Positions 9,051 to 60,943 of a DNA stretch of 64,000 bases are shown here, one piece after another; positions within the stretch are counted from its first letter, which is position 1, and the number at the start of each line of letters is the position of its first letter. The translations under genes and the position numbers were made by a program. The stretch covers positions 24,656 to 88,655 of the forward strand of contig JANWIN010000004.1 of NCBI GenBank assembly GCA_025449905.1, written 5' to 3'. The notes under the pieces are model-generated. The model saw only the letters and a list, made by a program, of their open reading frames with translations, ran no database searches and was not told the DNA's origin. This stretch comes from Candidatus Saccharimonadales bacterium. GTDB lineage: Bacteria > Patescibacteriota > Saccharimonadia > Saccharimonadales > JANWIN01.

Positions 9051-10070
9051 ATGATTAGACTGCCGTCGTATCTCTACCGAGATGCTCGGATGGGTGAACT
9101 GTTGGAACTGTTTATGGTATCAGCCGTAACAGCCTTGCTCGTTAATCGCTTTATTTTGTTTCTACTGGGCTATCCATCTATAGGCGGCAGCAAGCTGCAT
9201 ATTGCCCATATGCTTTGGGGTGGCCTCCTAATGCTGATTGGTTTAATTTTAGTCTTTGTTTTTTTGGGTTACCGGGTGCGCCAACTAGCCAGCATTGTTG
9301 CTGGCGCTGGCTTTGGCCTATTCATTGACGAGCTGGGTAAGTTCATAACTCGTGATAACAACTATTTCTTTCAACCGACGATTGCTCTAATTTATCTAAT
9401 TTTTGTTATCCTATTTATCATTTTTAGAAGCTTAAGCAGCCAACGGCGACTAAGCCAGCAGGAGTACCTAATGAACGCCTTAAGCTTGTCAGAGGAGACG
9501 ATAATGATTGATTTGTCTAGTATTGAGCGCCAACAAGCGCTTAGCTATCTTGAAAAAGCCGATCAATCAAACCCGTTGGTTAAGGCCTTAACTGAGGCTC
9601 TAAATTCGACTAAAACAGTGGATTCCGATAATCGGGCCTGGCTTAAAAAATGGGCTGACGGAGTAGTTAACTTTTATAATAAATTGATTCATCTGCCTTA
9701 CGCGGCCAAAGTTATTGATGGGGTTTTTATAATCAAAGCCCTGATTTTCCCATTGCTATTAATACTTGGACCGATTGATAGTTTAAAAAACGGTATATCC
9801 GGCAAGCTGGATTGGATGACGGTTTTAGAACTTATTAGTTCACTGGTAGCAGGCGCCTATGTGCTAGCCGGCGTGCTTAAAATTAAAAAATCACGCTTAA
9901 AGGCTTATGAGCTTTTTTCTAAGTCACTGTTGATTGATATTTTTATCACCCAGTTTTTTGCATTTTACGTCAGCCAGTTCCAAACCCTGTATGTCCTAGC
10001 TATAAATGTGGCTCTATACTTTGCCGTTCGCTTCCTCATTCAGCAGGAAAAACGCAAACTCGTTACTTAG
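9051..10070 (+). CDS. hypothetical polytopic membrane protein
   Basis: ORF track; start moved to the ATG at 9051, which lies 8 nt after a TATAAT box (leaderless-like); multiple TM helices. Confidence 0.5.
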   Translation: MIRLPSYLYRDARMGELLELFMVSAVTALLVNRFILFLLGYPSIGGSKLHIAHMLWGGLLMLIGLILVFVFLGYRVRQLASIVAGAGFGLFIDELGKFITRDNNYFFQPTIALIYLIFVILFIIFRSLSSQRRLSQQEYLMNALSLSEETIMIDLSSIERQQALSYLEKADQSNPLVKALTEALNSTKTVDSDNRAWLKKWADGVVNFYNKLIHLPYAAKVIDGVFIIKALIFPLLLILGPIDSLKNGISGKLDWMTVLELISSLVAGAYVLAGVLKIKKSRLKAYELFSKSLLIDIFITQFFAFYVSQFQTLYVLAINVALYFAVRFLIQQEKRKLVT

Positions 10071-11004
10071 TATTTTCACAAACGACAACAAGTTGCTCTA
10101 CACTAACTTTTTTATAGCCGCGATTACGTACTTCTAAATCAAAATCAGACTTATTAACTTCTTCTATAGCGTCAAAGACAACGGCTGGGCTTGGGCGGGG
10201 CAATCGTTTATTTACTCTTTCTTTTAACTTCATGCTATGCAGAAGAGACATTATGACCCATTGATAGTCACCCCATCCCTCTGCAGGCACCCGCAATTCT
10301 GCGGGTTCAGCTGATTCCTGGGACTGTTCAATATAACTCCTTATGGTTACTCTAGCAGCTAAATCTGCAATCACTTTATCGGGACCGTGTTTCTTGTACC
10401 AGTTTTCCGGGAGTTCGTAATCAGGGAATTTTTCACTTATTACTTTTTCGGCATCTTCCCATGCTTCTTGATGGTAGCTTTCACCTCTTGTAGCTTCGAC
10501 AATTAAAGCGCCTCGTTTTACTCCGCGAACTAAATTATCAATCGTTTTGCCATTTTCATCTATATGATAACTAGCCATAAGTTTATAACCTGCATCGTAT
10601 TGGCTCTCTTCCCCTATAGGACGAGTAATGTCCGCTCTTCTAAGCACGATAGTTGAATGTCCTGCTTCGTGTGCGTCTAGCAGGGCAACATGTTCAGAGG
10701 CATGGTCTAATACGGCTTCTGAATAATCAACCCCAACAATTCTTAAACCGCTGGGGTGCTGACTGTAAAGACGTCTTATAAAATAGCCATCTCCACATGC
10801 TAGGTCAATAACTCGCCCATCTGTAATGTCGAAGGGAATTTCCGCAATTTCTTGATAAATATTACGGCGCGGCACAGCATACTTGAGAGTAAATCCCCGA
10901 CGTATTCCTGCATACATAAAAGAATAGTCATACTGATCATGAGATACTTCACTTGGGCGACTCAACATAGCCGCAGGATCTCCCACACTTTCACTAGCTG
11001 ACAT
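10063..11004 (-). CDS. class I SAM-dependent methyltransferase
   Basis: Motif I VIDLACGDGYF followed by a post-I acidic residue; about 313 aa. Confidence 0.7.
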   Translation of the reverse strand: MSASESVGDPAAMLSRPSEVSHDQYDYSFMYAGIRRGFTLKYAVPRRNIYQEIAEIPFDITDGRVIDLACGDGYFIRRLYSQHPSGLRIVGVDYSEAVLDHASEHVALLDAHEAGHSTIVLRRADITRPIGEESQYDAGYKLMASYHIDENGKTIDNLVRGVKRGALIVEATRGESYHQEAWEDAEKVISEKFPDYELPENWYKKHGPDKVIADLAARVTIRSYIEQSQESAEPAELRVPAEGWGDYQWVIMSLLHSMKLKERVNKRLPRPSPAVVFDAIEEVNKSDFDLEVRNRGYKKVSVEQLVVVCENTK

Positions 11005-11080: not shown

Positions 11081-11752
11081 ATGTCTGTAGAGGCTCTGTC
11101 AGAACTTCGAAAAGTTTTAAGTGAGGGCAGGACTTATGAAATACAAAAAGGCCAGGTTATTCTATCAACAGAAGATCGAGAAGTCTTTAATTATATCTCT
11201 TCAGGTTTTGTTAAGCGTTACCTAATTTCTCACAAAGGGGATATTGGCGTGCAGATTATTTACGGGCCGGGTGATTTTTTCCCTCTTAGCCGTGTATATA
11301 AAGTTTTATTTAATCAAGACCTTTATAAAGGACCAGAAATTTATTACTACGAAGCTATGACAGACCTTGAGCTTAGCACTATTGACGCTGCAGAATTAAA
11401 AGAAAAAGTAACCGGCAGTATGTTATTGCACCGTGCTCTTCTAATAGAGGCCGGCAAGCGGCTAGAAACGACTCTTTGGGGGCTGGAAAATATCATGATG
11501 GAGAATTCTCAAAAAAGGGTAGCTCACCAATTGGCCTATTATGCTCGCCATTTTGGCAAAAAAACCAGCAAAGGAGTTGAAATTAAAATCCCTCTAACCC
11601 ATCAAGACTTAGCCGACATCCTTAGTGTTGCGCGTGAGACGGTTTCGCCGGCAATGAAGCAACTTAGAAAAGAGGGCTTGATTAAAACCAATAGACACAT
11701 AGTAGTGCCAAATATAAATAAGCTAGAAAAAGAAGCCTATACAAGCGAATAG
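11081..11752 (+). CDS. Crp/Fnr family transcriptional regulator
   Basis: cNMP-binding-like N-terminal domain and C-terminal HTH (THQDLADILSVARETVSPAMKQLRKEGLI). Confidence 0.8.
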   Translation: MSVEALSELRKVLSEGRTYEIQKGQVILSTEDREVFNYISSGFVKRYLISHKGDIGVQIIYGPGDFFPLSRVYKVLFNQDLYKGPEIYYYEAMTDLELSTIDAAELKEKVTGSMLLHRALLIEAGKRLETTLWGLENIMMENSQKRVAHQLAYYARHFGKKTSKGVEIKIPLTHQDLADILSVARETVSPAMKQLRKEGLIKTNRHIVVPNINKLEKEAYTSE

Positions 11753-11757
11753 TGATT

Positions 11758-12141
11758 TTATTTTTCGAAAGTTTTAATAGCGCTAATTAAATCATCCAGC
11801 GAAACTTCAGCTTTGACAAGATAACCATCCATAATTTTTTTAACATCTGGGGTTAAAAGAGTGCTATCTTGACCAAGGTTTGTCAGCATTATTATTTTCG
11901 GCTGGCTAGTCAAGAGAGATGGGTCGCTGCGCAAGGTTTTTAAAACTTCATAGCCATCTTTTTTAGGCATCATAATGTCTAAAAAAATTAAATCTGGCTT
12001 GTAGCTTTTGGCAACGGCTATGGCTTGCTCGCCGTCAAAGGCAACATTTACATCATAGCCTTTAGACTTAATAAAATTTCTATACATCTCGCAGAGCTCG
12101 GCGTTATCCTCGACCATTAATATTTTATGTATAGCTGCCAT
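11758..12141 (-). CDS. single-domain response regulator (CheY/PilH-like receiver)
   Basis: ILMVEDN...DLIFLDIMMPKKDGYEVL...; no output domain. Confidence 0.85.
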   Translation of the reverse strand: MAAIHKILMVEDNAELCEMYRNFIKSKGYDVNVAFDGEQAIAVAKSYKPDLIFLDIMMPKKDGYEVLKTLRSDPSLLTSQPKIIMLTNLGQDSTLLTPDVKKIMDGYLVKAEVSLDDLISAIKTFEK

Positions 12142-12164: not shown

Positions 12165-12938
12165 TTATTTTTTAATAATACTTACCAGTTCTTCGAAGTC
12201 ACCGGTTTCTAAATCTGTAGTTGCTACTTCAGCCGCCACCCCCGGGCAATGCCACTTATTCTCTTTAGTTTTTTTATCAATTGGCGTCCAATCGTAAAAC
12301 TTAATGCAGCCGGTGTAGGTCGCCAGCTTAGTTTTTACAGTTTCATTTACGGCTACGACGTTTCGCGTGTCTTCAGCCTCACCTTTGTCATATTCTTGTT
12401 TGTAAGAATCACCTACTTTATTATCAGCCTTTATCCAATAACCGGGTTTAGCCCCGTTAACGCCAGCCAACCACGAACCTTCGTGGTCAGTAAATTGCCC
12501 GCCTTCGTAATTTTCAACATCCTCACCAAAATACCAAACATTACCATCTTTATCTTGGGCTACATAGTCGCGGGTGGCCTCTGCGACTATGCCGTTAACC
12601 GACACTACATCATGATAAATTAAGGTCTCTACGCCAGTTATTTTTTTGGTAGCACCGGTTATGGTAATAACCGATCTTTCCAGACCTTCCTTAGTATTAA
12701 CTTCATAAACTAGTTTGCGGCCAACCGGTAGCGAAAAGTAGGGATTGGTTATTTTGGTGGTAAAGTCTTCAGGATTTATCGACGGGTTGTATTCCTCGAC
12801 GGCGGGCTGGCTAGACTGCTTTTTATCATCGTTCCTGTTTATAACATAGTACGCACCGCTACCAATTAAAACCAAGGCTAGCAATAAAACTATGATTTCA
12901 ATAATGCCAAAACCGCTGTTATTGTGCTTGTGTTTCAC
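12165..12938 (-). CDS. secreted protein with a prepilin-type N-terminal cleavage/methylation signal (pseudopilin-like)
   Basis: N-terminus MKHKHNNSG|FGIIEIIVLLLALV: short basic leader, Gly, then Phe+1 and Glu+5, followed by a hydrophobic helix. Confidence 0.55.
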   Translation of the reverse strand: MKHKHNNSGFGIIEIIVLLLALVLIGSGAYYVINRNDDKKQSSQPAVEEYNPSINPEDFTTKITNPYFSLPVGRKLVYEVNTKEGLERSVITITGATKKITGVETLIYHDVVSVNGIVAEATRDYVAQDKDGNVWYFGEDVENYEGGQFTDHEGSWLAGVNGAKPGYWIKADNKVGDSYKQEYDKGEAEDTRNVVAVNETVKTKLATYTGCIKFYDWTPIDKKTKENKWHCPGVAAEVATTDLETGDFEELVSIIKK

Positions 12939-16113: not shown

Positions 16114-19100
16114 TTAGTCCTTTAAAAATACAGCACCCTGGGCCACCGAAAGCGGTCTAAACAATATGTGATTTCCTTGTTTGGTTAGTCGGATGCGAGA
16201 TAAACCACCCGCCACAATAACCTCGGGAGGTATATTTTTAATTTGTCTATAGCGTCGTTTTTTAGCAGTCATGTCTTTAAGGATTACCTCTTCTTCATCG
16301 GCAACATACTGATCATGACTATTAAAAGATGGCTTCAAAACAGTACCGCTATCTAAACGATACTCCTGATCAATTTTTTTAGGATTTCTAACTCGCGCAT
16401 TTCGTTTGACGAATTTAAGGCCGCTTAGCGACCTTTGACCCAATTGATTTGCTAAAGCATCAACATCAGTTAAGCAATCGGCTTGTTTTTCTAAAGTAAC
16501 TACACGACCCCTCAAATCGCCATTGCTATAGACTAGTCCGCTATAAGCTTTGACAACTTTGAAGCCCATTTGCCCAGCAAGATTATTGAACGTCCCGACA
16601 TCGGCCAGATCAAGTGAATATATCTGAGTTACTATAGCCTTGCCACCTACTTTAAGAACTCGGTTCATTTCTTTAAATATAGCTAATCGTTCCAAGGCTT
16701 CTGGATCAACCGATCTTTTGGACGGCCGATACTTTGTACTATCGAGCACTAAACCAAGGCTGACTACATCCATGGAGCCTGAAGCGATGGGTACATTAAC
16801 GACACTGCCGACAATGTTTTTAGGAGCTGGTCTATGATGATCAAAATGATTTAAATTGATATCTAGACTAGTAACATTCCTCGCTAGATTATCAGCAATA
16901 TGCTGTTTTAACATTTCGGGCCCCGAACCTAAATCCAAAATAGCCGGTGCAGCAAGCTCACCGTTTTTTCTATACTCTTCTATTATTGTGCTAGTTAAGC
17001 GTGCCATATTGGCTTGATAGCTGCGACTGGAAAGTTCTTTATAGGTTGATGCGTACTCGGCTCCGCTACTGGCAACCAAACGCCGAGTAGCTAATTCGCC
17101 TTGCTGCTTAAGCCGTCCAAACATTTTGTCGATGCGTTGGGTGGCATTGAAATAGTGTGCGGCCAGCTCTGGATTGACGTCGGCATTTGGTTCGACTTTT
17201 TCGTCTTCAGCGTCTATTAATGTTTTCCTATCAAGTTCAGATAGTGGCACGCCAAATAGTAATTTTCTAATAGCTTGATCTTTACGCTGAATATATTGGT
17301 GAATACCTTCTTCTATAGTTCCGGCGGCTATATAAGTATTGACTGTCAGCGGATTATTTCGACCCGGCCGCTGACATCTGCCAATTTCTTGCCTCTTTTC
17401 TGCCATTGTCCAGCCCTCGTTATAAAAACTAAGATCATCGGCCGCCGAAAAATCCACGCCGACGCCCGATGTCCTACCGCTAACTACCAATAACATTTTC
17501 TGATCCGAATTCTGAAATTCTTGCTGCAACTCGTACCTGGTTTCTTCTGGAGTATCCCCGTGAATTACACCAACTCTAACGTCGTCGGGGAGATCAAAAT
17601 AGTCAATTATAGAATCTTCACCAGCAATAACATCAGTAACAAAGTCGTTTACAAAAACCAGTGCTTTTCTCTTGTCTTCAAAAGTTTTTCTAAGTTCATT
17701 GCCGATATGCAAAGCTTTTGAAGGGATAATATGCGGTACAGCATCAACAGTCGCCGGGTTCAATAAAACGCGCCGGCAAGCTTGCATTTTTGATGAAAAA
17801 TCCAGTTCATCATCATCTAAAATAACCTGATATATTTCAGCTTCTGCTTCGCTAAGTGCAACATATTCAGTCTTTTCCTTTAGCATTGGTAAATCAATGC
17901 AGTCTTCCAGGCTTTTCATTTGCATTCTGGGTATTAACAAGCTGCGTAAATCTCTGACATCACGCGTGTCACCATTATCGCCGCCGCTAATCATTAGATA
18001 AGCCAGCTGTTTGTTACTGTATTTTGCGAACTTATCAGGATAAAGAACCCTTAGGGCCATGGCAATGTCACTGACTTTGTTTGGTGCCGGTGTTGCCGTG
18101 AGCATAACCGTGTAGGCATCTTTACGATTTAACAACTGGTCGGATAGCTCTACTAACTGGCTAGCTCTTTTACCGTCGCTTATATTATTTAACTGGTGTG
18201 CCTCGTCAATTATTAACATATCAAAACCAACTCGCTCCAAGGCCTTGCCGTAAGCTGGGTTGCTAAGTTTTTCATGCGAGATAAGAATGTAATCCCATTC
18301 TTCATTCCGAATATTTTCTACCATGGCTGGGCTGTTAACTTCCAAGACTCGAGGTCCTTCGCCAGTTTTAAAATATCCCAGTTGCTGACCGTTTGAATCC
18401 TTGCTATCCGATAAGTATGTTTGCCAAATTTGCTTTTCCAAAACACCGCTTGGCGCGATAACTACTGCCAGCTTTGCGCCAAGTTTCTCTTTGGCGATGA
18501 TGGCCGAAGCACTTTTGCCCAGTCCCGGATCATCAGCTATTAACATTCGTTTCTTTTCACAGATTTCTTTTATGTTAATTCGTTGGTTTAAATCCGGAAA
18601 TGGCCGCTCGGGTTTAAGGTTTTCAACTACTCTAGCAGGTAATTTAAAATCTACAAACAGAGCTAAGTAGTAGTCCATAACCTCATTAATCACCGAGTCT
18701 AAATGTTCATTATCCAGTTCGGCTACGCTTTCGCGAAGATTATCTAAATAACTAGCTATAATAGCAAAATCATCTTCAGCAGGGTTGCTGCGTTTTGTTC
18801 TGTGGTAAGTCGACAAACAGTCTTGCTTGATGACCTCAACTAAGGCCGCTTTAAGGCTAGGGCTTGATAAAAACTCAGCGGTTAAAGCCATTTGTTCAAA
18901 ATCGGGATTGCCGCGAAAAACAGTAAACTCGCCTAAGTAGTCAGCCAAGAAGCTTTTGACATAATCAATTGGCACATTTGTTAGATTTGGGCGGTAGTGA
19001 AAGAATAAGTCAGTTGCATATGCCGGTCCTAAAAGCTCTACCAATTTTTTAAATTCTTGGGCATCCAGACTCAATCCGGCTCTAATTTCTTCTGTAAACT

Positions 19101-19713
19101 CTCGAAAGTCAGTTTCGGTATCGCTGACTCGTGATCTTGCTCTTTGTTCGCGGTTGCGGAGGCTCTGACTAATAGTTGGTGCAAGATCTGGGGAAATATG
19201 AAGTTCAACCTCATCTTCAGTATTTTTATGAGGTCTAATATTCAGCGGATACTGATTCCTTAAACGCCTAGCAACTACTCGCAAATCTTCAACAGCGAAA
19301 CCGGTTAATCCAGCCAGCGAGCTGATACTAATCATATCTTCTGGTGCCGCAAGGTTTGCAGACAACCTATGCAGAACCTCCCAGTCACAATATAGAATCG
19401 CAGCATCTTCGGACGTAACGCCTAAACTAAAAAGCTGAGAAGCCTCGTCCATTACTTCATCAGTTAGCAACTTAACTTTAGATAATGGTAAGTCCAAAGC
19501 TAAAGCAATCTCAGGACGGCTAAATTTAATTCTCTCCCTAATTCCAGGTATTTCTTGGTTGACTTGGTCCTGGGCAGCGATTTCTATTAATCTCTCTTCA
19601 TATAGACGCCCAGAGTTGTCTTCCTCAACACCTCGGGCGGAAGCTTCTGCACTGTTTTGAGCTGAACTTGACTCTCTGACCATAAGACTGATTCTCTGAA
19701 CATATTTTATCAA
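16114..19713 (-). CDS. large SNF2-family (SF2) helicase fused to a C-terminal class I SAM-dependent methyltransferase domain; about 380-aa N-terminal region of unknown function
   Basis: Helicase motif I LIADDPGLGKSASAI, II MLIIDEAHQL, III MLTATPAPNK, VI QEIGRCQRPGR; MTase motif I AILDLGSGPE, post-II VVSLGLVLD, and RVLKVGGKAIV. Confidence 0.8.
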   Translation of the reverse strand: MIKYVQRISLMVRESSSAQNSAEASARGVEEDNSGRLYEERLIEIAAQDQVNQEIPGIRERIKFSRPEIALALDLPLSKVKLLTDEVMDEASQLFSLGVTSEDAAILYCDWEVLHRLSANLAAPEDMISISSLAGLTGFAVEDLRVVARRLRNQYPLNIRPHKNTEDEVELHISPDLAPTISQSLRNREQRARSRVSDTETDFREFTEEIRAGLSLDAQEFKKLVELLGPAYATDLFFHYRPNLTNVPIDYVKSFLADYLGEFTVFRGNPDFEQMALTAEFLSSPSLKAALVEVIKQDCLSTYHRTKRSNPAEDDFAIIASYLDNLRESVAELDNEHLDSVINEVMDYYLALFVDFKLPARVVENLKPERPFPDLNQRINIKEICEKKRMLIADDPGLGKSASAIIAKEKLGAKLAVVIAPSGVLEKQIWQTYLSDSKDSNGQQLGYFKTGEGPRVLEVNSPAMVENIRNEEWDYILISHEKLSNPAYGKALERVGFDMLIIDEAHQLNNISDGKRASQLVELSDQLLNRKDAYTVMLTATPAPNKVSDIAMALRVLYPDKFAKYSNKQLAYLMISGGDNGDTRDVRDLRSLLIPRMQMKSLEDCIDLPMLKEKTEYVALSEAEAEIYQVILDDDELDFSSKMQACRRVLLNPATVDAVPHIIPSKALHIGNELRKTFEDKRKALVFVNDFVTDVIAGEDSIIDYFDLPDDVRVGVIHGDTPEETRYELQQEFQNSDQKMLLVVSGRTSGVGVDFSAADDLSFYNEGWTMAEKRQEIGRCQRPGRNNPLTVNTYIAAGTIEEGIHQYIQRKDQAIRKLLFGVPLSELDRKTLIDAEDEKVEPNADVNPELAAHYFNATQRIDKMFGRLKQQGELATRRLVASSGAEYASTYKELSSRSYQANMARLTSTIIEEYRKNGELAAPAILDLGSGPEMLKQHIADNLARNVTSLDINLNHFDHHRPAPKNIVGSVVNVPIASGSMDVVSLGLVLDSTKYRPSKRSVDPEALERLAIFKEMNRVLKVGGKAIVTQIYSLDLADVGTFNNLAGQMGFKVVKAYSGLVYSNGDLRGRVVTLEKQADCLTDVDALANQLGQRSLSGLKFVKRNARVRNPKKIDQEYRLDSGTVLKPSFNSHDQYVADEEEVILKDMTAKKRRYRQIKNIPPEVIVAGGLSRIRLTKQGNHILFRPLSVAQGAVFLKD

Positions 19714-51570: not shown

Positions 51571-52818
51571 ATGAGCAGGATGTTATCCGAACTTCTCGGG
51601 GTTGCCGAGCCTAACTTAACTAGAATAATCAGAGGCTTGGAAGTGGCCAGTGGCCACCCCAATATTGATGTGCGTTTAACAGCCGAAGTGATTGGTTTGG
51701 CGCGGTTGAAAGTCAGGGAAATGGGACTAGATGTTGATGATACTAGCGGGCGAGAACTTTATCATAGCTTACAACAAATGATAGCCAAGCATGATGAGTT
51801 TTTAGCCGAACACTTAGAGGCCAAGTCTGACGGTGAAGTTAACTTGATAGGTTTAAAGAAGACCATTGATAAGCTAGATTTGCCCAGAGGCTGCTGGACG
51901 CTTAAAAATTCCGCCGCCAAAAGATTACTTAAAACTTCTCCGCCCAAGCAAGCTATGAAAAAGCTTGGCTACAAGTCGATAGATTCAATGCTCAAGCGTG
52001 AACCGCCGGCCAATATCTATCTAGCCATTCAGTTGGCCGAGTCGGGTATGTGGCAACAAAAATTTATCAAAAGCTATAAAGGTTTAAGCCCTAGCGACTT
52101 TACTAAAAGTGAAGTCAAAGTCCTGATTGTTAACGAAGACCACCTACTAGCTACTAGCCGTGATTATGTCAGACGTCACCGCCACAATATTGTTAGCCTT
52201 AAAGAATTTGGCATTATTGCACTGTTGCCATTACCAACCAAGTCTTTACCGGGCGCACATTTAACAATCCTAACGATGCTTATCAGCGCTCTTAATGATA
52301 TGCGGGCCCATAGTACTTATCTCAAACTCCAGCAGGTCAAGCCCAACTTTGGCGCTTTGGTCAGCAAGACCTTGCAGGGCCAGCCAGTTGGTCTGACAGT
52401 TGCTGGCCAGCACTTGCCATGGCGAATAATTCAGCAATACCTTAGTCGCCTGGAGATCATTCATCATCCGGATATTTTTGGTCCGCACGTCCAACCCGAG
52501 GATGTCGCTTGGCATAAACCCGAGGAGGTTCTGTTTCGTTTGGAGCCAGCCTTAAAGTTTTGGGAAAATGTTGATTTTGTCGGTGCACTTTATAAAGACC
52601 AGCCAGTATCGTTTAATCTTATGGATAGCGCACTTAGTTATTGCAACTCTTTGGCTTATACCAATCAAGCAACTCACTACTTCCGCGATAGCTTACTTAC
52701 CGAGCTTTACTTACGCTATTTACTGGAGACGCCACTGGGCGAGCGGGCACTTAATAAGCTGGATGATGGGCTGGTCGGTGAGCATGTTGATTTATTTGAG
52801 GGGGTAGAAGTTGGCTAA
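51571..52818 (+). CDS. hypothetical protein
   Basis: 415-aa ORF in the same operon as pfkB; no motif recognised. Confidence 0.5.
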   Translation: MSRMLSELLGVAEPNLTRIIRGLEVASGHPNIDVRLTAEVIGLARLKVREMGLDVDDTSGRELYHSLQQMIAKHDEFLAEHLEAKSDGEVNLIGLKKTIDKLDLPRGCWTLKNSAAKRLLKTSPPKQAMKKLGYKSIDSMLKREPPANIYLAIQLAESGMWQQKFIKSYKGLSPSDFTKSEVKVLIVNEDHLLATSRDYVRRHRHNIVSLKEFGIIALLPLPTKSLPGAHLTILTMLISALNDMRAHSTYLKLQQVKPNFGALVSKTLQGQPVGLTVAGQHLPWRIIQQYLSRLEIIHHPDIFGPHVQPEDVAWHKPEEVLFRLEPALKFWENVDFVGALYKDQPVSFNLMDSALSYCNSLAYTNQATHYFRDSLLTELYLRYLLETPLGERALNKLDDGLVGEHVDLFEGVEVG

Positions 52819-53380
52819 GTACCAAATTTGCATATCAGGGTCGCACACCGGCAAAAGTGTTGAATCCGGTAAGATTTTAGCCCAAGAATTAGGGCGAGCC
52901 GTAGCTAAGGGCGGGCATACCTTACTGACCGGCGCCACTATAGGACTACCTCATTTGGCCTCCGAAGCTTATAAAAAAGCTGGCGGTGAATTCAGTATTG
53001 GTATTAGTCCGGCTTCCTCTAAGGTCGAGCACGTTATGAAATATCGCTTGCCGGTGGAGACCTATGATGCTGTGCTTTACAGTGGAATGCACTATGCTGG
53101 CCGCGATGCCTTTTTAATTAATTCCAGCGATGCGGTCTTGAGCGTTGGCGGGCGGATGGGAACGTTTCATGAATTTGCCATCGCTGTTGAAACTGATACG
53201 CCAATTGGCTTTTTGCGCGGCGCTGGAGGCGTAAGCGATGAAATAAAAAATGTGCTAGAAGCGACTGGCGAGGGCAGCAACAAGCACGTCGTTTTTGCCG
53301 ACAGCGCCGAAGAACTTTTAAAAAAGATTGAGCACATACTAGATACTGATTTTGCCAAGTACCGCGACATCTATAAATAA
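52811..53380 (+). CDS. TIGR00725/LOG-like (SLOG) Rossmann-fold protein
   Basis: YQICISGSHTGKS ... GATIGLPHLASEAYKKAGG ... GGRMGTFHEFAIA pattern of LOG/DprA-like Rossmann proteins. Confidence 0.6.
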   Translation: MAKYQICISGSHTGKSVESGKILAQELGRAVAKGGHTLLTGATIGLPHLASEAYKKAGGEFSIGISPASSKVEHVMKYRLPVETYDAVLYSGMHYAGRDAFLINSSDAVLSVGGRMGTFHEFAIAVETDTPIGFLRGAGGVSDEIKNVLEATGEGSNKHVVFADSAEELLKKIEHILDTDFAKYRDIYK

Positions 53381-53449: not shown

Positions 53450-54070
53450 ATGAAAAAAATCAACACTCGCGGCCCTGTCCAGCTAGTTGGTGGCCAACAG
53501 GCTGGGTTCACCGCCGTTGAAGGCCTCTTGATTCTAGTAGTCGTCGGCATTATTGGCGGTGTTGGCTGGTTTGTTTTTAAGTCTAAAGATGACACCAACA
53601 AGACCTATGATAACTCAGCAAATTCATACACCAACCAAACCGCTAAAACCACAGAGTCTACTACTATGTGTGAAGCATCTGAAGAAGGTATGTTGCACAT
53701 TCATGAGCTTGGGATACAGCTTAAACTAGATGCCAAGGTTCTAGACGCGACTTGCGCTAAGATTAAAGACTATGACAGTCACTATCCAATAGGTTTATCT
53801 ACCAAAGCTTTAGAGAAATACGATGCTAACTGTAAGGCAGAGATGGGAAGCGTGGCGCAAATTGTAGTTTTTACAAACCCAAATGGCACTGATGCTAGTG
53901 TTGCTAACGGAACAAACATTGAGAATTTTCCAGATGCAATAAAGGTAGGTAATAAATACTACGCCATCTTTAATATTGGTCATCAATCGCCTTGTGGGAA
54001 AGAGTTTATAGAAGCTCAACATGAAGCTCTTGAAGGCTTTGAAAAAAGCGAAATAGAAAAAATGGAATAA
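53450..54070 (+). CDS. type IV pilin-like protein (prepilin-type N-terminal cleavage/methylation domain), paralogue 1
   Basis: Leader ...QQAG|FTAVEGLLILVVVGIIGGVGWFVF (Gly-1, Phe+1, Glu+5, hydrophobic helix); Cys pair in the C-terminal domain. Confidence 0.75.
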   Translation: MKKINTRGPVQLVGGQQAGFTAVEGLLILVVVGIIGGVGWFVFKSKDDTNKTYDNSANSYTNQTAKTTESTTMCEASEEGMLHIHELGIQLKLDAKVLDATCAKIKDYDSHYPIGLSTKALEKYDANCKAEMGSVAQIVVFTNPNGTDASVANGTNIENFPDAIKVGNKYYAIFNIGHQSPCGKEFIEAQHEALEGFEKSEIEKME

Positions 54071-54075
54071 GTCTG

Positions 54076-54765
54076 ATGAAAAAACTATCACAAAACGGAC
54101 CTGCCCAGCCAGTTGGAAATCAACAGGCTGGGTTTACGGTAATCGAAGGGTTACTAATCTTGGTAGTTGTCGGAATTATAGGCGGAGTTGGTTGGTTTGT
54201 GTTGAAATCTAAGAACGATTCTGAAAATACGCCTAAAGTTCAGACTGATCCTGAGTACATACCTAATGTTACGCAAAATAAAGTTGATCCTTATGCCCGG
54301 TGGAAGACCTACCACAATGATAAATATGGTTTCAGCATAAAGTACCCAGAGGGCTGGAAAACAATTGACATGAATCAGAATGATATTATTGGATTTGCAT
54401 CCGCAGACATAAAGTTTCCTAATGCTGAAGAAGGCCAGCTTAACCTTAATCCGCTAAGAGGTTCATGGCTTGAATTGTATGCCGGCAAAAACGTTGCCCA
54501 TGAAGACGGCTCAAAAGATTCCTACGAGTCAGATTTAAAAACCAACTCTGAAGCAGTAAAGGCCTTTAGCGGCAATTACAAGACAATAAAGATAGACGGA
54601 TACAACGCAATCTGGAGTACCATTTCACCAGAAGGAAGCTATATTGAAGCGAATACTTACGCTAATAATAATTACTATCTTTTTAGGTTTAATGTGCCGG
54701 ATGAAGAAAATAAAAAATCACAAGATTTGTTTAAAAAAATCCTAGCAAGTGTGGACTTAGAATGA
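54076..54765 (+). CDS. type IV pilin-like protein, paralogue 2
   Basis: MKKLSQNGPAQPVGNQQAG|FTVIEGLLILVVVGIIGGVGWFVL. Confidence 0.75.
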   Translation: MKKLSQNGPAQPVGNQQAGFTVIEGLLILVVVGIIGGVGWFVLKSKNDSENTPKVQTDPEYIPNVTQNKVDPYARWKTYHNDKYGFSIKYPEGWKTIDMNQNDIIGFASADIKFPNAEEGQLNLNPLRGSWLELYAGKNVAHEDGSKDSYESDLKTNSEAVKAFSGNYKTIKIDGYNAIWSTISPEGSYIEANTYANNNYYLFRFNVPDEENKKSQDLFKKILASVDLE

Positions 54766-55424
54766 AAAAGCTATCACAAAACGGGTTTACGGCAGTAGAA
54801 GGTCTCTTGATTTTGGTAATTGTTGGGATTATCGGCGGCGTAGGTTGGTTTGTCTGGAACAATAGATCAGCTGGAGTGAAGCCAGCGGCCGACAAAAGCT
54901 CGCAGTCAATTAAAGCTGTTTCTGCAAAAGATACCACGAAGACTTTCTCTTATTCCTATCCGAGCAGTTGGAAGCTACAAAAATTTGTTTGGCAAGATTG
55001 CTGTGAAGGACCACCTAAAAGTGAGCCAGATTGGAATAAAACCTCACAAACGATAACACTACAGAATAAAAGCAATGATAAAGCAGAAATCATTATTAAT
55101 GGCTTTACGAACTTTCCTGATTCGGTTGACAGAGAAATCGAGTCAGAAATAGAGTCAATTGATAAAGACCAATTCAATACATATTCAAAGGTTACCATCA
55201 ATGGCTACAAAGGGATTAAGCATGTGCTTGATTTCGTCGGCCCGAGTGACGCAGAAAAGTACAAGGATACAACCTACATAATTTTTCATGGAAATGATAA
55301 GGTCAATCTTTACTTTAGGGAACGATATAGCAACGCAACACTAAATGGTGAGAATGATTTTGATGCAACAAACTTATATTCCGATTTTGAAACTATTGTA
55401 AACTCAATTAAATTTAATAGCTGA
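54762..55424 (+). CDS. type IV pilin-like protein, paralogue 3
   Basis: MKKLSQNG|FTAVEGLLILVIVGIIGGVGWFVW; CC pair in the C-terminal domain. Confidence 0.75.
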   Translation: MKKLSQNGFTAVEGLLILVIVGIIGGVGWFVWNNRSAGVKPAADKSSQSIKAVSAKDTTKTFSYSYPSSWKLQKFVWQDCCEGPPKSEPDWNKTSQTITLQNKSNDKAEIIINGFTNFPDSVDREIESEIESIDKDQFNTYSKVTINGYKGIKHVLDFVGPSDAEKYKDTTYIIFHGNDKVNLYFRERYSNATLNGENDFDATNLYSDFETIVNSIKFNS

Positions 55425-56161
55425 TGATGAAAAAACTATCACAAAAAGGATTTACAGTTATCGAAGGCCTATTGATTTTACTAATTGTCGGGATCATTGG
55501 TGGCGTCGGTTGGCATGTTCATAAGACAAAAGATGATACTAGCAATACTTATGACAATTCTGTTAATACAGGCGAACCAAGCAAAAACACCATAGATTCT
55601 TTCGAGGAATGCAAAAAAGCCGGAAATCCGATCCAAGAAAGCTATCCTGAAAGATGTAGTGCTGGGAGTAAAAGCTTCACAAACATAGCTCAAGAATCCA
55701 AAGATTGGCTGCAATATGTTGCCAAGGATGGGACATACAAAGTTAAACTCAACGATGGTTGGGTTATAGACAAGCTTAAATCTTCAGACATTTTACTAAC
55801 TTTTAATAACGAAAACCTAAAACCTAAAGCAGGCAATCGGGCACTGGTAAAAACCGTAAGTGACGGACCCGGTGAATATTACGACAGTATTCTATTTATA
55901 AAAGTAGAAAATGATCGCTTTTCAACTGATAGCTCTACAGAGACTCCAGTCTTTAATACGTTGAGCGGCATAAAAGTCTACAGAACCAAAAGCGTTGAGG
56001 ATAACGATGGCCAACCTTTACCGAAAGGTACAAAAAGGTATTACTACGCAATTGGTCACAAAAATAAAACTTTCACAGTACTTTACAGTGTTCAACCGGG
56101 TGAGACAGACTACCATGAAGAAGTAGAAAAGGTAGTACAGACCGTAGAACTCACATACTAA
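55424..56161 (+). CDS. type IV pilin-like protein, paralogue 4
   Basis: MMKKLSQKG|FTVIEGLLILLIVGIIGGVGWHVH; C-terminal domain with a Cys pair. Confidence 0.75.
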   Translation: MMKKLSQKGFTVIEGLLILLIVGIIGGVGWHVHKTKDDTSNTYDNSVNTGEPSKNTIDSFEECKKAGNPIQESYPERCSAGSKSFTNIAQESKDWLQYVAKDGTYKVKLNDGWVIDKLKSSDILLTFNNENLKPKAGNRALVKTVSDGPGEYYDSILFIKVENDRFSTDSSTETPVFNTLSGIKVYRTKSVEDNDGQPLPKGTKRYYYAIGHKNKTFTVLYSVQPGETDYHEEVEKVVQTVELTY

Positions 56162-56180: not shown

Positions 56181-58142
56181 ATGGCTTTCCATCTTAAAAG
56201 CGAATATAAGCCTACCGGTGATCAGCCGGCGGCTATTGCGGCATTGACTGCAGGGCTCGAGAAGAACACTAAAGAGCAGACACTTTTAGGTGTAACCGGC
56301 TCCGGCAAGACTTTTACGATGGCCAATGTCATCCAAAACGCTCAAAAACCGACGCTGGTGCTCAGCCACAATAAAACCCTGGCCGCCCAGCTGTACAGCG
56401 AGTTCAAGCGCTTTTTCCCGGATAATCCGGTTCATTACTTTGTTAGTTACTTCGATTATTACCAGCCGGAGGCTTACATTCCGCGCTCTGATACTTATAT
56501 AGAAAAAGACAGCCAGATAAATGAAGAAATTGACCGGCTGCGCCACGCTGCCACCGATGCGCTATTAACCCGCCGCGACGTGATTATTGTGGCCAGCGTG
56601 AGTTGCATTTACGGTATTGGCTCGGTGGAAGATTACGGTGATATGGCGGTGAAGATTAAGAAAGGCGAGCGATGCCTGCGAGACAAACTGATGCGCCAAC
56701 TGACCGATATCCAGTACCGGCGCAATGATGTGGCTTTTGAGCGCGGCAACTTTAGGGTACGCGGCGATACGGTGGATATTTATCCGGCTGGCGAGGAAGA
56801 TGCTTACCGCGTCGAGTTTTTTGGCGATGAGGTAGAGCGCATGACCAAAATTGACCCGCTGACCGGCACAATCCTCGGCGAACCGCCAGAAGTTAGGATT
56901 TTCCCCAGTTCCCACTACGTCACACCGGAGGCTAAGCTTAAAGGAGCATTGGGTCAGATTCAAAAAGAATTAGGGGAGCGCCTGGCTTATTTTAAAAAGA
57001 ACAATTTATTATTAGAAGCTCAGCGTCTAGAGCAACGCACTAAGTTTGATCTGGAGATGATGGAAGAGACCGGTTTTGTTAAAGGTATAGAAAATTACTC
57101 AAGATATCTAACTAACCGTGAGCCGGGTGAACAGCCAGCCACGCTGCTGGACTATTTCCCGGATGATTACCTGATGTTTATAGACGAGTCGCATATGAGT
57201 ATTCCGCAGGTCCGCGGTATGTATAACGGCGACCGGGCTCGCAAGGAAGTCTTGGTAGAGCATGGTTTTCGCCTGCCCAGTGCGCTAGACAACCGGCCGC
57301 TGACCTTTACCGAATTTGAGCGGCATATGAATAAGGTGGTTTATGTCAGTGCCACGCCGGCCGACTATGAACTGTCGCGCAGCGCCAAGCCGGTTCAGCA
57401 GATTATCCGCCCGACCGGACTAATTGATCCCAAAATTGATATTCGGCCGATTGAGGGCCAGATTGATGATTTAATTGCTGAAATACGGGCGACGGTTGAA
57501 AAGCGCCAGCGAGTGCTGGTAACTACGCTAACTAAGCGGATGGCCGAAGATTTAACTGATTATCTAAAAGACGTCGATATTAAGGTCACTTATCTTCATA
57601 GTGATGTTGAGACACTGGAGCGGACTGATATTTTGCGTGACCTGCGCCTCGGGACTTATGACGTAGTAGTTGGTATTAATCTGCTGCGTGAGGGGCTGGA
57701 TTTGCCGGAAGTTAGCCTAGTGGCTATTTTGGATGCTGATAAAGAGGGGTTCCTGCGTAGTGAACAAGCCTTAATTCAAACTATTGGCCGGGCGGCGCGG
57801 CATATTGATGGGCGGGTGCTGATGTATGCCGATCATGAAACGGGCAGTATGAAGCGGGCTATTGGCGAGACTAACCGGCGCCGTAAGATTCAGGAAGAAT
57901 ATAACAAGGAGCATAAGATTACGCCTAAGGGCATTTCGACAAAGATTGAAAAAGGTTTACGTCCTGATTTACCGGAGGAGGCTAAGCGGGCCAAGCTGGA
58001 TCTTAAGAAGATTCCTAAGGATGAGTATGGGCACCTTATCAAGGATTTGACGGGGCAGATGGATTTGGCGGCCGCCAACCTTGAATTTGAAAAAGCTGCT
58101 GAGCTTAGGGACATTATTTCGGATATTAAAGCTAAAATGTAG
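56181..58142 (+). CDS. uvrB: excinuclease ABC subunit B
   Basis: [13 protein letters not shown] Walker A; DESH box; beta-hairpin; C-terminal UVR domain FEKAAELRD. Confidence 0.95.
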
Positions 58143-59512: not shown

Positions 59513-60943
59513 ATGAGCATATCTGATGTATCTCCTCGTGATTTCTTTTCTGAGACACCACCGCCTCGTATTATTGGGACTGAGTGCGAGTACAATGTAC
59601 AAAACTATTCAAAACTTTCCAGCAATATTAAACTTGTTGATTATATAAGTGATAGAGCTCTTGAAAATTGCGGAATAAGTCATTACGGGGGCTATTTAGA
59701 TAATGGCGCTCGCCTGTACTACGATGTCGGCCATTTAGAATATGCGACACCTGAATCATTAGGGCCACGTCAGGCAGCAGCAGCAGATTTAGCTGGCGTA
59801 TTAGTAATGAGAGAAGTTATAAAAAATAGTGAATACCCGCATAGCGGCGTTTTTCGTCTGGCCGGTTCATATCTGGAGCGGAATCCAGAAGCATCTGACG
59901 CACAGGGTGTAACCAGCGGTTATCACGAAAACTATTTAATACCGCGAAATATTACCCGGAGCCCTTTTATCAATATGCTTTTACCGGCACATCTGGCTAG
60001 CCGCATATGGTCTGGTGGAGGAACGCTTAAAACAAGTTTTGTTTTCTCACAGAAAGTTTGGGGCGTATTTGGACCACCCATTAGTGAATCATATGGCCGT
60101 AGGACCAGTCATCAACATAAACCAATGGTATTACTACCCACCGCAGCAATGGACAGCGATGTATTGGGCGACCCTAAGTGGGCGAGAGCTGAAGTTCGTT
60201 TTGGAGATGCCGGTCTGTCGCCAGCAAGCAGATTTCTGAGCTTAGCTACGACATCATTAGTGTTAAGAATTGTAGAACATAGAAAAAAATTGGACGATCA
60301 CCGTCTTTGGGCAGTAGATTTTAAAAACCCAGCCGATGCAGCTCATTTATTTGCTAGTGACCTAAGCCTTAAAGACACTGCTCCGACGACTGAAGGTAAA
60401 AGATATACAGCCCTAGATATGCAGGAAATCCTTGCAGGCTTGGCATTCGACTTAAGTATGGAAATAGACCTCCCTCCAGACGAAAGCCTAGCTTTAGCAA
60501 TTTGGCCCGATATTATCGCGAAAATGAAGGCCGCTAAACCAGAAAAAGGAGATTATGGTCTGTTGCCCAGCGAGCTGGATGTTGCAGCTAAGCATGCTTA
60601 TCTATCTCGCCATTTTAAGCCAAAAAATTTGCACCGGTCTAATGCGCCTGCTGCTTGGGCGAACTTAATATGGGATAGAATTGAGCCGGCTGGTGGCGGT
60701 ACTTTATGGTGGCGGAATCATCCATCTAAACTAGTTCCCGGTCATGAAATTGATGCGCTGACTGTGAGTCCTCCACAAACTCGGGCAGCTCTTAGGTCTA
60801 GATATATACAAGATTATGGCGACAGAATTAGCAAAATAAATTGGTGCAGCATTGATATAGTCGATGGAGATGATGTGACTAATAGCGAGAGCACTAAAGT
60901 ACAGACTGTCGCACTGCCCGACCCATATTTGGCTTTCTTATAA
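59513..60943 (+). CDS. PafA/Dop family Pup ligase/deamidase homologue (carboxylate-amine ligase fold)
   Basis: RIIGTECEYNV, NGARLYYDVGHLEYATPE and GYHENYLIPR align with the PafA/Dop N-terminal catalytic blocks (RIMGIETEFGV / NGARLYLDVGSHPEYAT / GCHENYLIVR); 476 aa. Confidence 0.8.
   Translation: MSISDVSPRDFFSETPPPRIIGTECEYNVQNYSKLSSNIKLVDYISDRALENCGISHYGGYLDNGARLYYDVGHLEYATPESLGPRQAAAADLAGVLVMREVIKNSEYPHSGVFRLAGSYLERNPEASDAQGVTSGYHENYLIPRNITRSPFINMLLPAHLASRIWSGGGTLKTSFVFSQKVWGVFGPPISESYGRRTSHQHKPMVLLPTAAMDSDVLGDPKWARAEVRFGDAGLSPASRFLSLATTSLVLRIVEHRKKLDDHRLWAVDFKNPADAAHLFASDLSLKDTAPTTEGKRYTALDMQEILAGLAFDLSMEIDLPPDESLALAIWPDIIAKMKAAKPEKGDYGLLPSELDVAAKHAYLSRHFKPKNLHRSNAPAAWANLIWDRIEPAGGGTLWWRNHPSKLVPGHEIDALTVSPPQTRAALRSRYIQDYGDRISKINWCSIDIVDGDDVTNSESTKVQTVALPDPYLAFL

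Follow-up and report, generated by a model that had tools for sequence, protein, structure and literature searches.

Saccharibacteria spend their lives on the surface of other bacteria, and of the possible means of contacting these hosts, type IV pili have the best support. The machinery that builds these pili is well conserved across Patescibacteria (PMC11623550). In Nanosynbacter lyticus TM7x, four pilus loci were described, the third comprising five pilins, together with an orphan PilK encoded away from the machinery; locus one is also conserved in distant Saccharibacteria clades, and the C-terminal parts of the pilins diversify (Grossman et al. 2024, PMC11623550). Known modular type IV pilins keep a complete pilin module (alpha1 helix plus beta-sheet) onto which an extra module is grafted by a short loop, the common idea being that the pilus presents a binding domain that probably sits at the tip or is present in few copies (PMC8179133). 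Here we analyzed a 64,000-nucleotide stretch, hereafter the window, of contig JANWIN010000004.1 from a Candidatus Saccharimonadales bacterium (assembly GCA_025449905.1), which carries an array of four adjacent genes, g1 to g4, encoding proteins with a prepilin-type N-terminus. We estimate a probability of roughly 60% that these proteins are processed by a prepilin peptidase and present tethered binding domains, acting as accessory or anchored proteins and not as fibre-building pilins.

Prepilin-type N-termini

The array comprises four complete open reading frames (ORFs), each with its own start and leader. All four proteins begin with M(M)KK and continue, after the rest of the leader, with G|FT[AV][VI]EGLLIL[VL][VI]VGIIGGVGW[FH]V, where the bar marks the cleavage site. 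The hallmarks of a class III signal are thus found in every copy: a basic leader (KK), glycine at -1, phenylalanine at +1 and glutamate at +5. The hydrophobic stretch that follows the cleavage site, FTxxEGLLILxxVGIIGGVGWxV, is 24 residues long, where an alpha1N helix calls for at least about 20; in g1 it begins at the Phe codon at 53507. ORFs and motif agree with an earlier note on this DNA, which had described four consecutive, partly overlapping genes with a prepilin signal. A six-frame motif scan of the 64 kb detected only five such N-termini, each starting a long ORF.

The leaders measure 19 residues in g1 and in g2, 8 in g3 and 9 in g4. An 11-residue insert before the cleavage site, which the earlier note had recognized in the first two paralogues, is indeed present there and reads GPxQxVGxQQA. 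In a relative, P0003 (ENA contig L001), the same insert follows an intact G-F-T and leaves two tandem Gly-Phe sites, which suggests that it arose through partial duplication of the cleavage region.

To place these N-termini in a wider context, we examined the 149 best representatives of the g4 family. The canonical G|[F][TSGA]xxE motif was present in 109, with leaders mostly of 6-10 residues and phenylalanine at +1 in 105 of the 109; most of the other 40 keep Gly-Phe and differ at +5. Pfam N_methyl (PF07963) matched 5 of 31 g4-family relatives at E<=0.01, the best at E 4.5e-7. When the g4-family profile was compared with PDB sequences, type IV pilin N-termini came out best (PilA 9laa, E 1.1e-3, followed by geopilin, E 1.6e-3 and 4e-3); MshA (E 0.24) and PilE1 (E 0.37) matched at chance level, alongside FliL and a flagellin. 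The solved structures matching by sequence are type IV pilins only, and they match through the N-terminus. Two g3 orthologues carry the JGI annotation “pseudopilin PulG”.

These results bear on a rival view, in which g1 to g4 are ordinary signal-anchor membrane proteins whose G-F-T-x-x-E motif is a relic or serves insertion only, with no cleavage and no link to a pilus, and whose PsbP-like domains (described below) act in the manner of the envelope proteins LpqN, Apa and MTC28. A plain anchor would need no constraint of this kind on motif, leader length and Phe+1, so the conservation weakens that view, and the N_methyl matches among relatives and the pilin N-termini at the top of the PDB comparison also speak against it. 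From the signals themselves, cleavage of g1 to g4 by a prepilin peptidase appears likely.

C-terminal domains and their linkers

All members share a common plan, in which the leader and alpha1N are followed by a polar, low-complexity linker of about 15-50 residues (rich in Ser, Thr and Asn in g1) and then by a domain. The domains differ. Whereas the earlier note had credited every C-terminal part with a pair of cysteines, we counted four in g1, none in g2, two adjacent ones in g3 (residues 80-81) and two in g4. The same note had regarded the four C-terminal parts as unrelated. Pairwise BLAST supported this, detecting no similarity among g1 to g4 beyond the N-terminus, and hhalign of the single sequences against the g3 profile likewise gave nothing past that point; family-level profiles alone linked g2, g3 and g4.

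The clearest of these domains is that of g3. Its AlphaFold2 model, built from 15 sequences, had a mean pLDDT (predicted local distance difference test) of 79, with the domain at about 90 (the parts of the model are listed in Table 1). A Foldseek search of this domain against the PDB assigned it to the PsbP/Mog1 fold, with PsbP (2xb3) matching at E 1.2e-5 and probability 1.0. Further matches included BT_1490, Mycobacterium tuberculosis Apa, LpqN, MTC28, DcrB, Tsi3 and Mog1; those to PsbP/Mog1-fold envelope proteins ranged from E 1e-5 to 6e-4 at a sequence identity of 4-15%. No pilin was named among the 50 matches listed. A pilin fold has a long alpha1 helix, the C-terminal half of which is packed on an antiparallel beta-sheet; the g3 model does not show this arrangement, and its helix spans about 26 residues. 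Fourteen orthologues of g3 were found at 45-58% identity, two of which (P0011 and P0019) carry the Pfam domain PF18933 (PsbP_2).

Related domains are predicted in the two genes on either side. The g2 protein scores 26.1 bits against PsbP_2, just under the cut-off of 27, over model positions 35-178 of 184, and an hmmsearch comparison of g2 with the g4 C-terminal hidden Markov model (HMM) gave E 6.7e-7. With hhalign, the g4-family C-terminal profile (120 sequences) aligned to g2 at a probability of 90% (E 1.5e-6) and to the g3 family at 73.5% (E 3e-5), in the latter case end to end over 140 columns. The g4 family itself has no PsbP_2 match at E<=0.01, and no Pfam family covers its C-terminal domain. 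Since the family profiles and the g2 score align them, the domains of g2, g3 and g4 are probably remote homologues of PsbP-like fold, the fold being shown for g3 alone; the earlier view of unrelated C-terminal parts thus probably does not extend to these three genes. In g4, the linker and the main domain are separated by a small Cys-pair motif, which occurs in 51 of the 149 family representatives and has no Pfam match.

The g1 protein stands apart. Jackhmmer gathered its four-cysteine domain, here called type A, into a family with P0005 and with the genes L003a, L003b, L006 and L004b. No Pfam or PDB match was found for this family, and profile comparisons gave no PsbP-like signal. By these comparisons g1 is a separate family whose domain is unrelated to those of g2 to g4.

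Several observations weigh against the reading of g1 to g4 as prepilin-peptidase substrates with a displayed domain. The g3 model contains neither alpha1C nor a beta-sheet pilin head, the PsbP fold accounting for the whole domain, which makes it doubtful that the protein polymerises stably; structurally, a protein made of a helix, a linker and a PsbP-fold domain is neither the major nor the minor pilin that the earlier note had proposed. The g1 model, with one homologue in its alignment, reached a pLDDT of 38 and was discarded. In Pfam, g2 to g4 score 14.6 bits for N_methyl against a cut-off of 21.2 and g1 has no match (a further paralogue, P0005, scores 18.4); the suggestion to check the array with this model was therefore borne out among relatives and not in the window. 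NCBIfam returned weak GspH/ComGC-type matches alone for the window proteins. The canonical motif is absent from about a quarter of the g4-family representatives (40 of 149), and Glu+5 from several orthologues of g3. The GAST content of g1 to g4 is 25-31%, which, compared with TM7x, comes close to its orphan pilins and intracellular proteins and not to its major pilins (PMC11623550). Finally, T2SSE Walker A, His box and A24 peptidase motifs were found neither in the window nor in the 25 related loci that we fetched, and these sequences likewise revealed no gene for a prepilin peptidase, an assembly ATPase or a platform protein.

On the signal-anchor view, much of this is what one would expect, namely the N_methyl scores under the cut-off, the loss of Glu+5 in many relatives, the missing pilin head of g3 and a composition like that of intracellular proteins. 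It also accommodates the structural neighbours of g3, which include secreted and lipoprotein envelope proteins of Actinobacteria, and the observation that in the 25 fetched loci array-type genes never lie beside pilus machinery. Within the window, Pfam searches of about 60 ORFs and the motif scan revealed no pilB, pilC, pilD or pilM-Q gene, in line with the earlier note. Loss of Glu+5 would, however, be easier to tolerate in accessory or anchored proteins than in major subunits. Given the constraint on the cleavage region described above, we consider plain signal anchors rather unlikely.

A different alternative is that the array encodes major subunits of an unusual thin filament, in which alpha1N helices would form the entire fibre and the globular domains would dangle from it on tethers. 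The high conservation of alpha1N and its close match among the copies suit this idea, as do the geopilin-type short pilins among the best PDB sequence matches and the very thin type IV pilus reported in TM7x (PMC11623550). That pilus, however, was attributed to PilA2, which has the classical lollipop fold (PMC11623550), and the low GAST content and the frequent loss of Glu+5 are also at odds with such a subunit. The presence of four different domains in one operon further speaks against a single major subunit, leaving this alternative a very slim chance. We thus favour tethered display by accessory or anchored proteins.

A variable genomic slot and the shared 5' module

We searched for relatives of the four proteins and examined where their genes reside. 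A full HMMER scan assigned 1088 cluster representatives to the g4 family at E<=1e-3 and 177 at E<=1e-10, many of them full-length relatives of 210-255 residues, whereas word-indexed searches with g1 and g2 recovered almost nothing but the queries themselves and their paralogues. All related loci with a named source organism belong to Candidatus Saccharibacteria or Saccharimonadales.

In the window, the array lies between a SLOG gene and uvrB. This order (SLOG, one or more pilin-like genes, uvrB), or one of its junctions on short contigs, was found on eight independent contigs including the window. The content of the slot varies: four genes in the window (type A g1, followed by the three probable PsbP-like genes g2, g3 and g4), two type-A genes in locus L003, a type-A gene accompanied by a gene of a different type in L004, one type-A gene in L006 and a single g4-type gene in L014; L016, L021 and L022 show slot junctions only. 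Comparison across genomes, which the earlier note had suggested, thus did reveal copy-number variation, with one, two, two or four genes per slot. The SLOG gene is syntenic with the slot in L004, L006, L014 and L022, and L003 has an upstream LOG-like gene on the opposite strand that the SLOG query did not match. Downstream, uvrB follows the pilin-like genes at 76-84% identity in L003, L004, L006, L014 and L021 and at 62% over a 34-residue fragment in L016; that of L014 has Pfam UvrB domains. A metagenome scan yielded contigs of about 1 kb only, contributing two of the slot junctions (L021 and L022) and no arrays. A functional tie of the array to the flanking SLOG gene or uvrB was considered and rejected, as synteny is the sole evidence for it.

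Outside the slot, relatives of g3 and g4 occur as single genes in variable regions. In the L009-L011 and L012-L013 loci, one g3 orthologue adjoins an island of SIR2-HerA and NgoPII restriction-modification genes that also carries a serine recombinase, and one adjoins a Patescibacteria type IV secretion cluster (TrbC/TrbL/VirB4-like/CHAP). One g3/g4 relative sits between genes for a YkuD protein and a pyrophosphatase.

The four window genes share a 5' module, recovered by a repeat search as a 92-nt direct repeat in four copies spaced 626-665 nt apart. The earlier note had reported similarity at the DNA level, and the repeat exists, but its copies are only 64-79% identical. Over 25 shared codons, synonymous sites are saturated (pS 0.62-0.84) and dN is 0.06-0.16, so the similarity of the module DNA is what amino-acid constraint alone gives. 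No two of the 5' regions share an exact match of more than 22 nt. Judging from this saturation and these short matches, the window array is free of recent gene conversion, and its modules at present offer little for recombination to act on.

At the protein level, the copies nevertheless resemble each other closely. The four window modules agree on average at 21 of 25 residues (range 19-23), while the 153 family members from other genomes and P0005 typically average 10-15 of 25 against the window modules, one reaching 20. This difference indicates that copies within a genome are kept matched and, as the synonymous sites are saturated, that in the window the matching is due to selection. Matched N-termini would fit co-assembly or a shared processing or loading partner.

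Two relatives present a different picture. In L003, the modules of the two genes (9980-10100 and 10620-10740) differ at 3 positions in about 85 nt, and those of L004 (2048-2143 and 2677-2772) show no difference across about 94 nt. Identity of the module DNA is thus 96-100% in these pairs, and in each of them similarity collapses just past the module. The two C-terminal parts of L004 fall into different families. Near-identity with so sharp a boundary indicates gene conversion in these loci. The notion of the shared module as a substrate for recombination thus holds for the family, by the L003 and L004 signature, and appears inactive in the window array, where synonymous sites are saturated.

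Pilin diversification or antigenic variation has to be weighed at this point, that is, the possibility that the genes are interchangeable variants of one pilin whose 5' module drives ongoing swaps of C-terminal cassettes. The near-identical 5' DNA of L003 and L004, joined to divergent and, in L004, unrelated 3' parts, is in keeping with such swapping, and so are the differences in copy number and domain type within the same slot. The window array, however, shows saturated modules with short exact matches, and all four genes are complete, so that the silent, promoterless partial cassettes and identity tracts of the Neisseria pilE/pilS type are not found here. Moreover, g3 and g4 each carry a domain from an old family of its own, with relatives at 30-58% identity in other genomes, often as single genes, and not the variant cassettes of one gene that the earlier note had envisaged. 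We therefore regard this explanation as highly unlikely and retain tethered display of distinct domains.

The array is co-directional throughout. The spacing is tight (a gap of 5 nt between g1 and g2, overlaps of 4 nt between g2 and g3 and of 1 nt between g3 and g4), which makes co-transcription of the four genes likely. Scans of the array and its surroundings for promoter-like and terminator-like sequences gave no more matches than shuffled sequence did. The array forms the end of a long co-directional block whose genes encode GAPDH, RpiB, Rpe, a transketolase, an FBP aldolase, a PfkB kinase, a 415-residue protein and the SLOG (LDcluster4) protein; uvrB begins 19 nt downstream of g4. The 415-residue protein (51571-52818, + strand) has no Pfam family; it occurs at 36-43% identity in L003, L004, L006 and L014, syntenic there with the PfkB kinase and SLOG genes. 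The coordinates are collected in Table 1.

Table 1. Positions of the array genes, their parts and related features in the window
Feature	Position (nt)	Strand	Extent	Basis
g1	53450-54070	+	206 aa	ORF
g2	54076-54765	+	229 aa	ORF
g3	54762-55424	+	220 aa	ORF
g4	55424-56161	+	245 aa	ORF
Array g1-g4	53450-56161	+		
Gly-1 codon, g1	53504-53506	+		
Gly-1 codon, g2	54130-54132	+		
Gly-1 codon, g3	54783-54785	+		
Gly-1 codon, g4	55448-55450	+		
Leader insert before Gly-Phe site, g1	53471-53503	+	11 aa	
Leader insert before Gly-Phe site, g2	54097-54129	+	11 aa	
Direct repeat, copy 1	53483-53574	+	92 nt	repeat search
Direct repeat, copy 2	54109-54200	+	92 nt	repeat search
Direct repeat, copy 3	54762-54853	+	92 nt	repeat search
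Direct repeat, copy 4	55427-55518	+	92 nt	repeat search
g2 probable PsbP-like domain	54274-54741	+	residues 67-222	PsbP_2 near threshold
g3 helix		+	residues 11-36	AlphaFold2 model
g3 low-confidence linker		+	residues 37-49	AlphaFold2 model
g3 domain	54909-55421	+	residues 50-220	AlphaFold2 model
g4 Cys-pair mini-domain, C..AGNP..ES.PE.C	55610-55657	+	residues 63-78	
g4 conserved C-terminal domain	55688-56152	+	residues 89-243	family profile
SLOG (LDcluster4) gene, upstream slot border	52811-53380	+		Pfam PF18306, 102.6 bits
uvrB, downstream slot border	56181-58142	+		76-84% identity to relatives' uvrB
Fifth prepilin-signal protein, MKHKHNNSG|FGIIE...	12165-12938	-	257 aa	ORF and motif scan

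The fifth prepilin-signal protein of the window is more divergent than g1 to g4. It has no Pfam match, was unmatched by the family HMMs and falls into none of the g1, g3 and g4 families. The earlier note had placed its gene beside two orphan receiver-domain regulators. The gene is present, on the minus strand, where a single stand-alone receiver-domain gene (11758-12141, - strand) follows it immediately in the same direction; a Crp/Fnr-type regulator (11081-11752, + strand) adjoins this pair, whereas the other receiver of the window adjoins a histidine kinase. These neighbours may point to regulated expression. A sixth paralogue, P0005 (179 residues), lies on the same 126.6-kb contig outside the window.

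Two further genes of the window deserve mention in their own right. One, at 59513-60943 (+ strand), encodes a member of the Pup-ligase family (PF03136, 165 bits); it is in Actinobacteria, from which Saccharibacteria usually draw their hosts, that pupylation typically occurs. The other, at 16114-19713 (- strand), encodes a 1199-residue fusion protein with SNF2/DEAD helicase domains and a methyltransferase domain.

Proposed display role and comparison with known systems

Taken together, we propose the following course of events. Cleavage after the glycine would fall to a prepilin peptidase whose gene lies in another part of the genome, and the alpha1N helix would keep the cleaved protein anchored in the membrane. 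From there, the type IV pilus machinery might load it into a fibre, where it would be a scarce accessory subunit located either at the tip or here and there along the length; alternatively, the protein would stay as a membrane-anchored stub. Entry into a filament is, in our estimate, somewhat short of an even chance. Either way, the tethered domain would be exposed to bind a ligand, most plausibly in the envelope of the host bacterium. Such a ligand is made plausible by the lifestyle of these bacteria and by the fold relatives among actinobacterial envelope proteins, and we suggest a host-binding role tentatively. The SLOG-uvrB slot would be a hot spot where pilin-like genes accumulate and are exchanged, with the N-terminal module kept matched within a genome, by selection in the window and by gene conversion in some relatives.

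A bolder extension, which we judge to be distinctly unlikely, is that Saccharibacteria possess a large class of “headless” pilin-like proteins in which alpha1N alone links a PsbP-like or other domain to the pilus. On this reading, the slot would serve specifically for diversification, with module conversion swapping host-binding domains and helping to set host range. Should g1 to g4 instead be plain membrane anchors, the finding would be routine. As it stands, a widespread family in which a prepilin signal is combined with a PsbP-fold domain on a tether, located in a variable syntenic slot and with structural neighbours among actinobacterial envelope proteins, offers concrete candidates for host binding, and it raises a question for pilus biology, namely whether a protein with alpha1N only can be handled by the pilus machinery.

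Two described systems were set aside in searching for a counterpart. The Pam pili of candidate phyla radiation bacteria are described as consisting of Ig-like subunits joined by donor-strand exchange (Troman et al. 2026, bioRxiv 10.64898/2026.03.03.709456), as opposed to the PsbP fold and N-terminal transmembrane helix of g3. The VirB2 pilin arrays of Patescibacteria type IV secretion systems represent another family of proteins, even if one g3 orthologue adjoins such a system. In the literature library searched by full text, no paper names both PsbP and “type IV pilin”.

The pilin-only and orphan loci of TM7x resemble the array in their phylum-level setting, in pilin genes located away from the machinery and in C-terminal diversification, and the TM7x orphan pilins share the GAST content of intracellular proteins (PMC11623550). 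The array is set apart in that the pilins of TM7x have, by their description, a lollipop shape with a pilin head, and that near-identical N-terminal modules of neighbouring genes, the SLOG-uvrB slot and PsbP-like domains are not described there (PMC11623550). With the modular type IV pilins PilB and PilC of Streptococcus sanguinis, g1 to g4 share a class III signal, alpha1N and a putatively displayed non-pilin module (Raynaud et al. 2021, PMC8179133), which in g3 has the PsbP fold and in g2 scores near the PsbP_2 threshold. Where those proteins have a complete pilin module, the g3 model has only some 26 helical residues and, after them, a disordered linker.

The PsbP/Mog1-fold envelope proteins (cyanobacterial PsbP, LpqN, Apa, MTC28 and Salmonella DcrB; PF18933) share their fold with the modelled g3 domain; they use Sec or lipoprotein signals, whereas g3 has a prepilin-type N-terminus. 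In the sugar-binding “bindosome” proteins of archaeal Sulfolobus, a class III signal anchors or displays a binding domain without forming a fibre, as one proposed fate of g1 to g4 would have it, with different binding folds.

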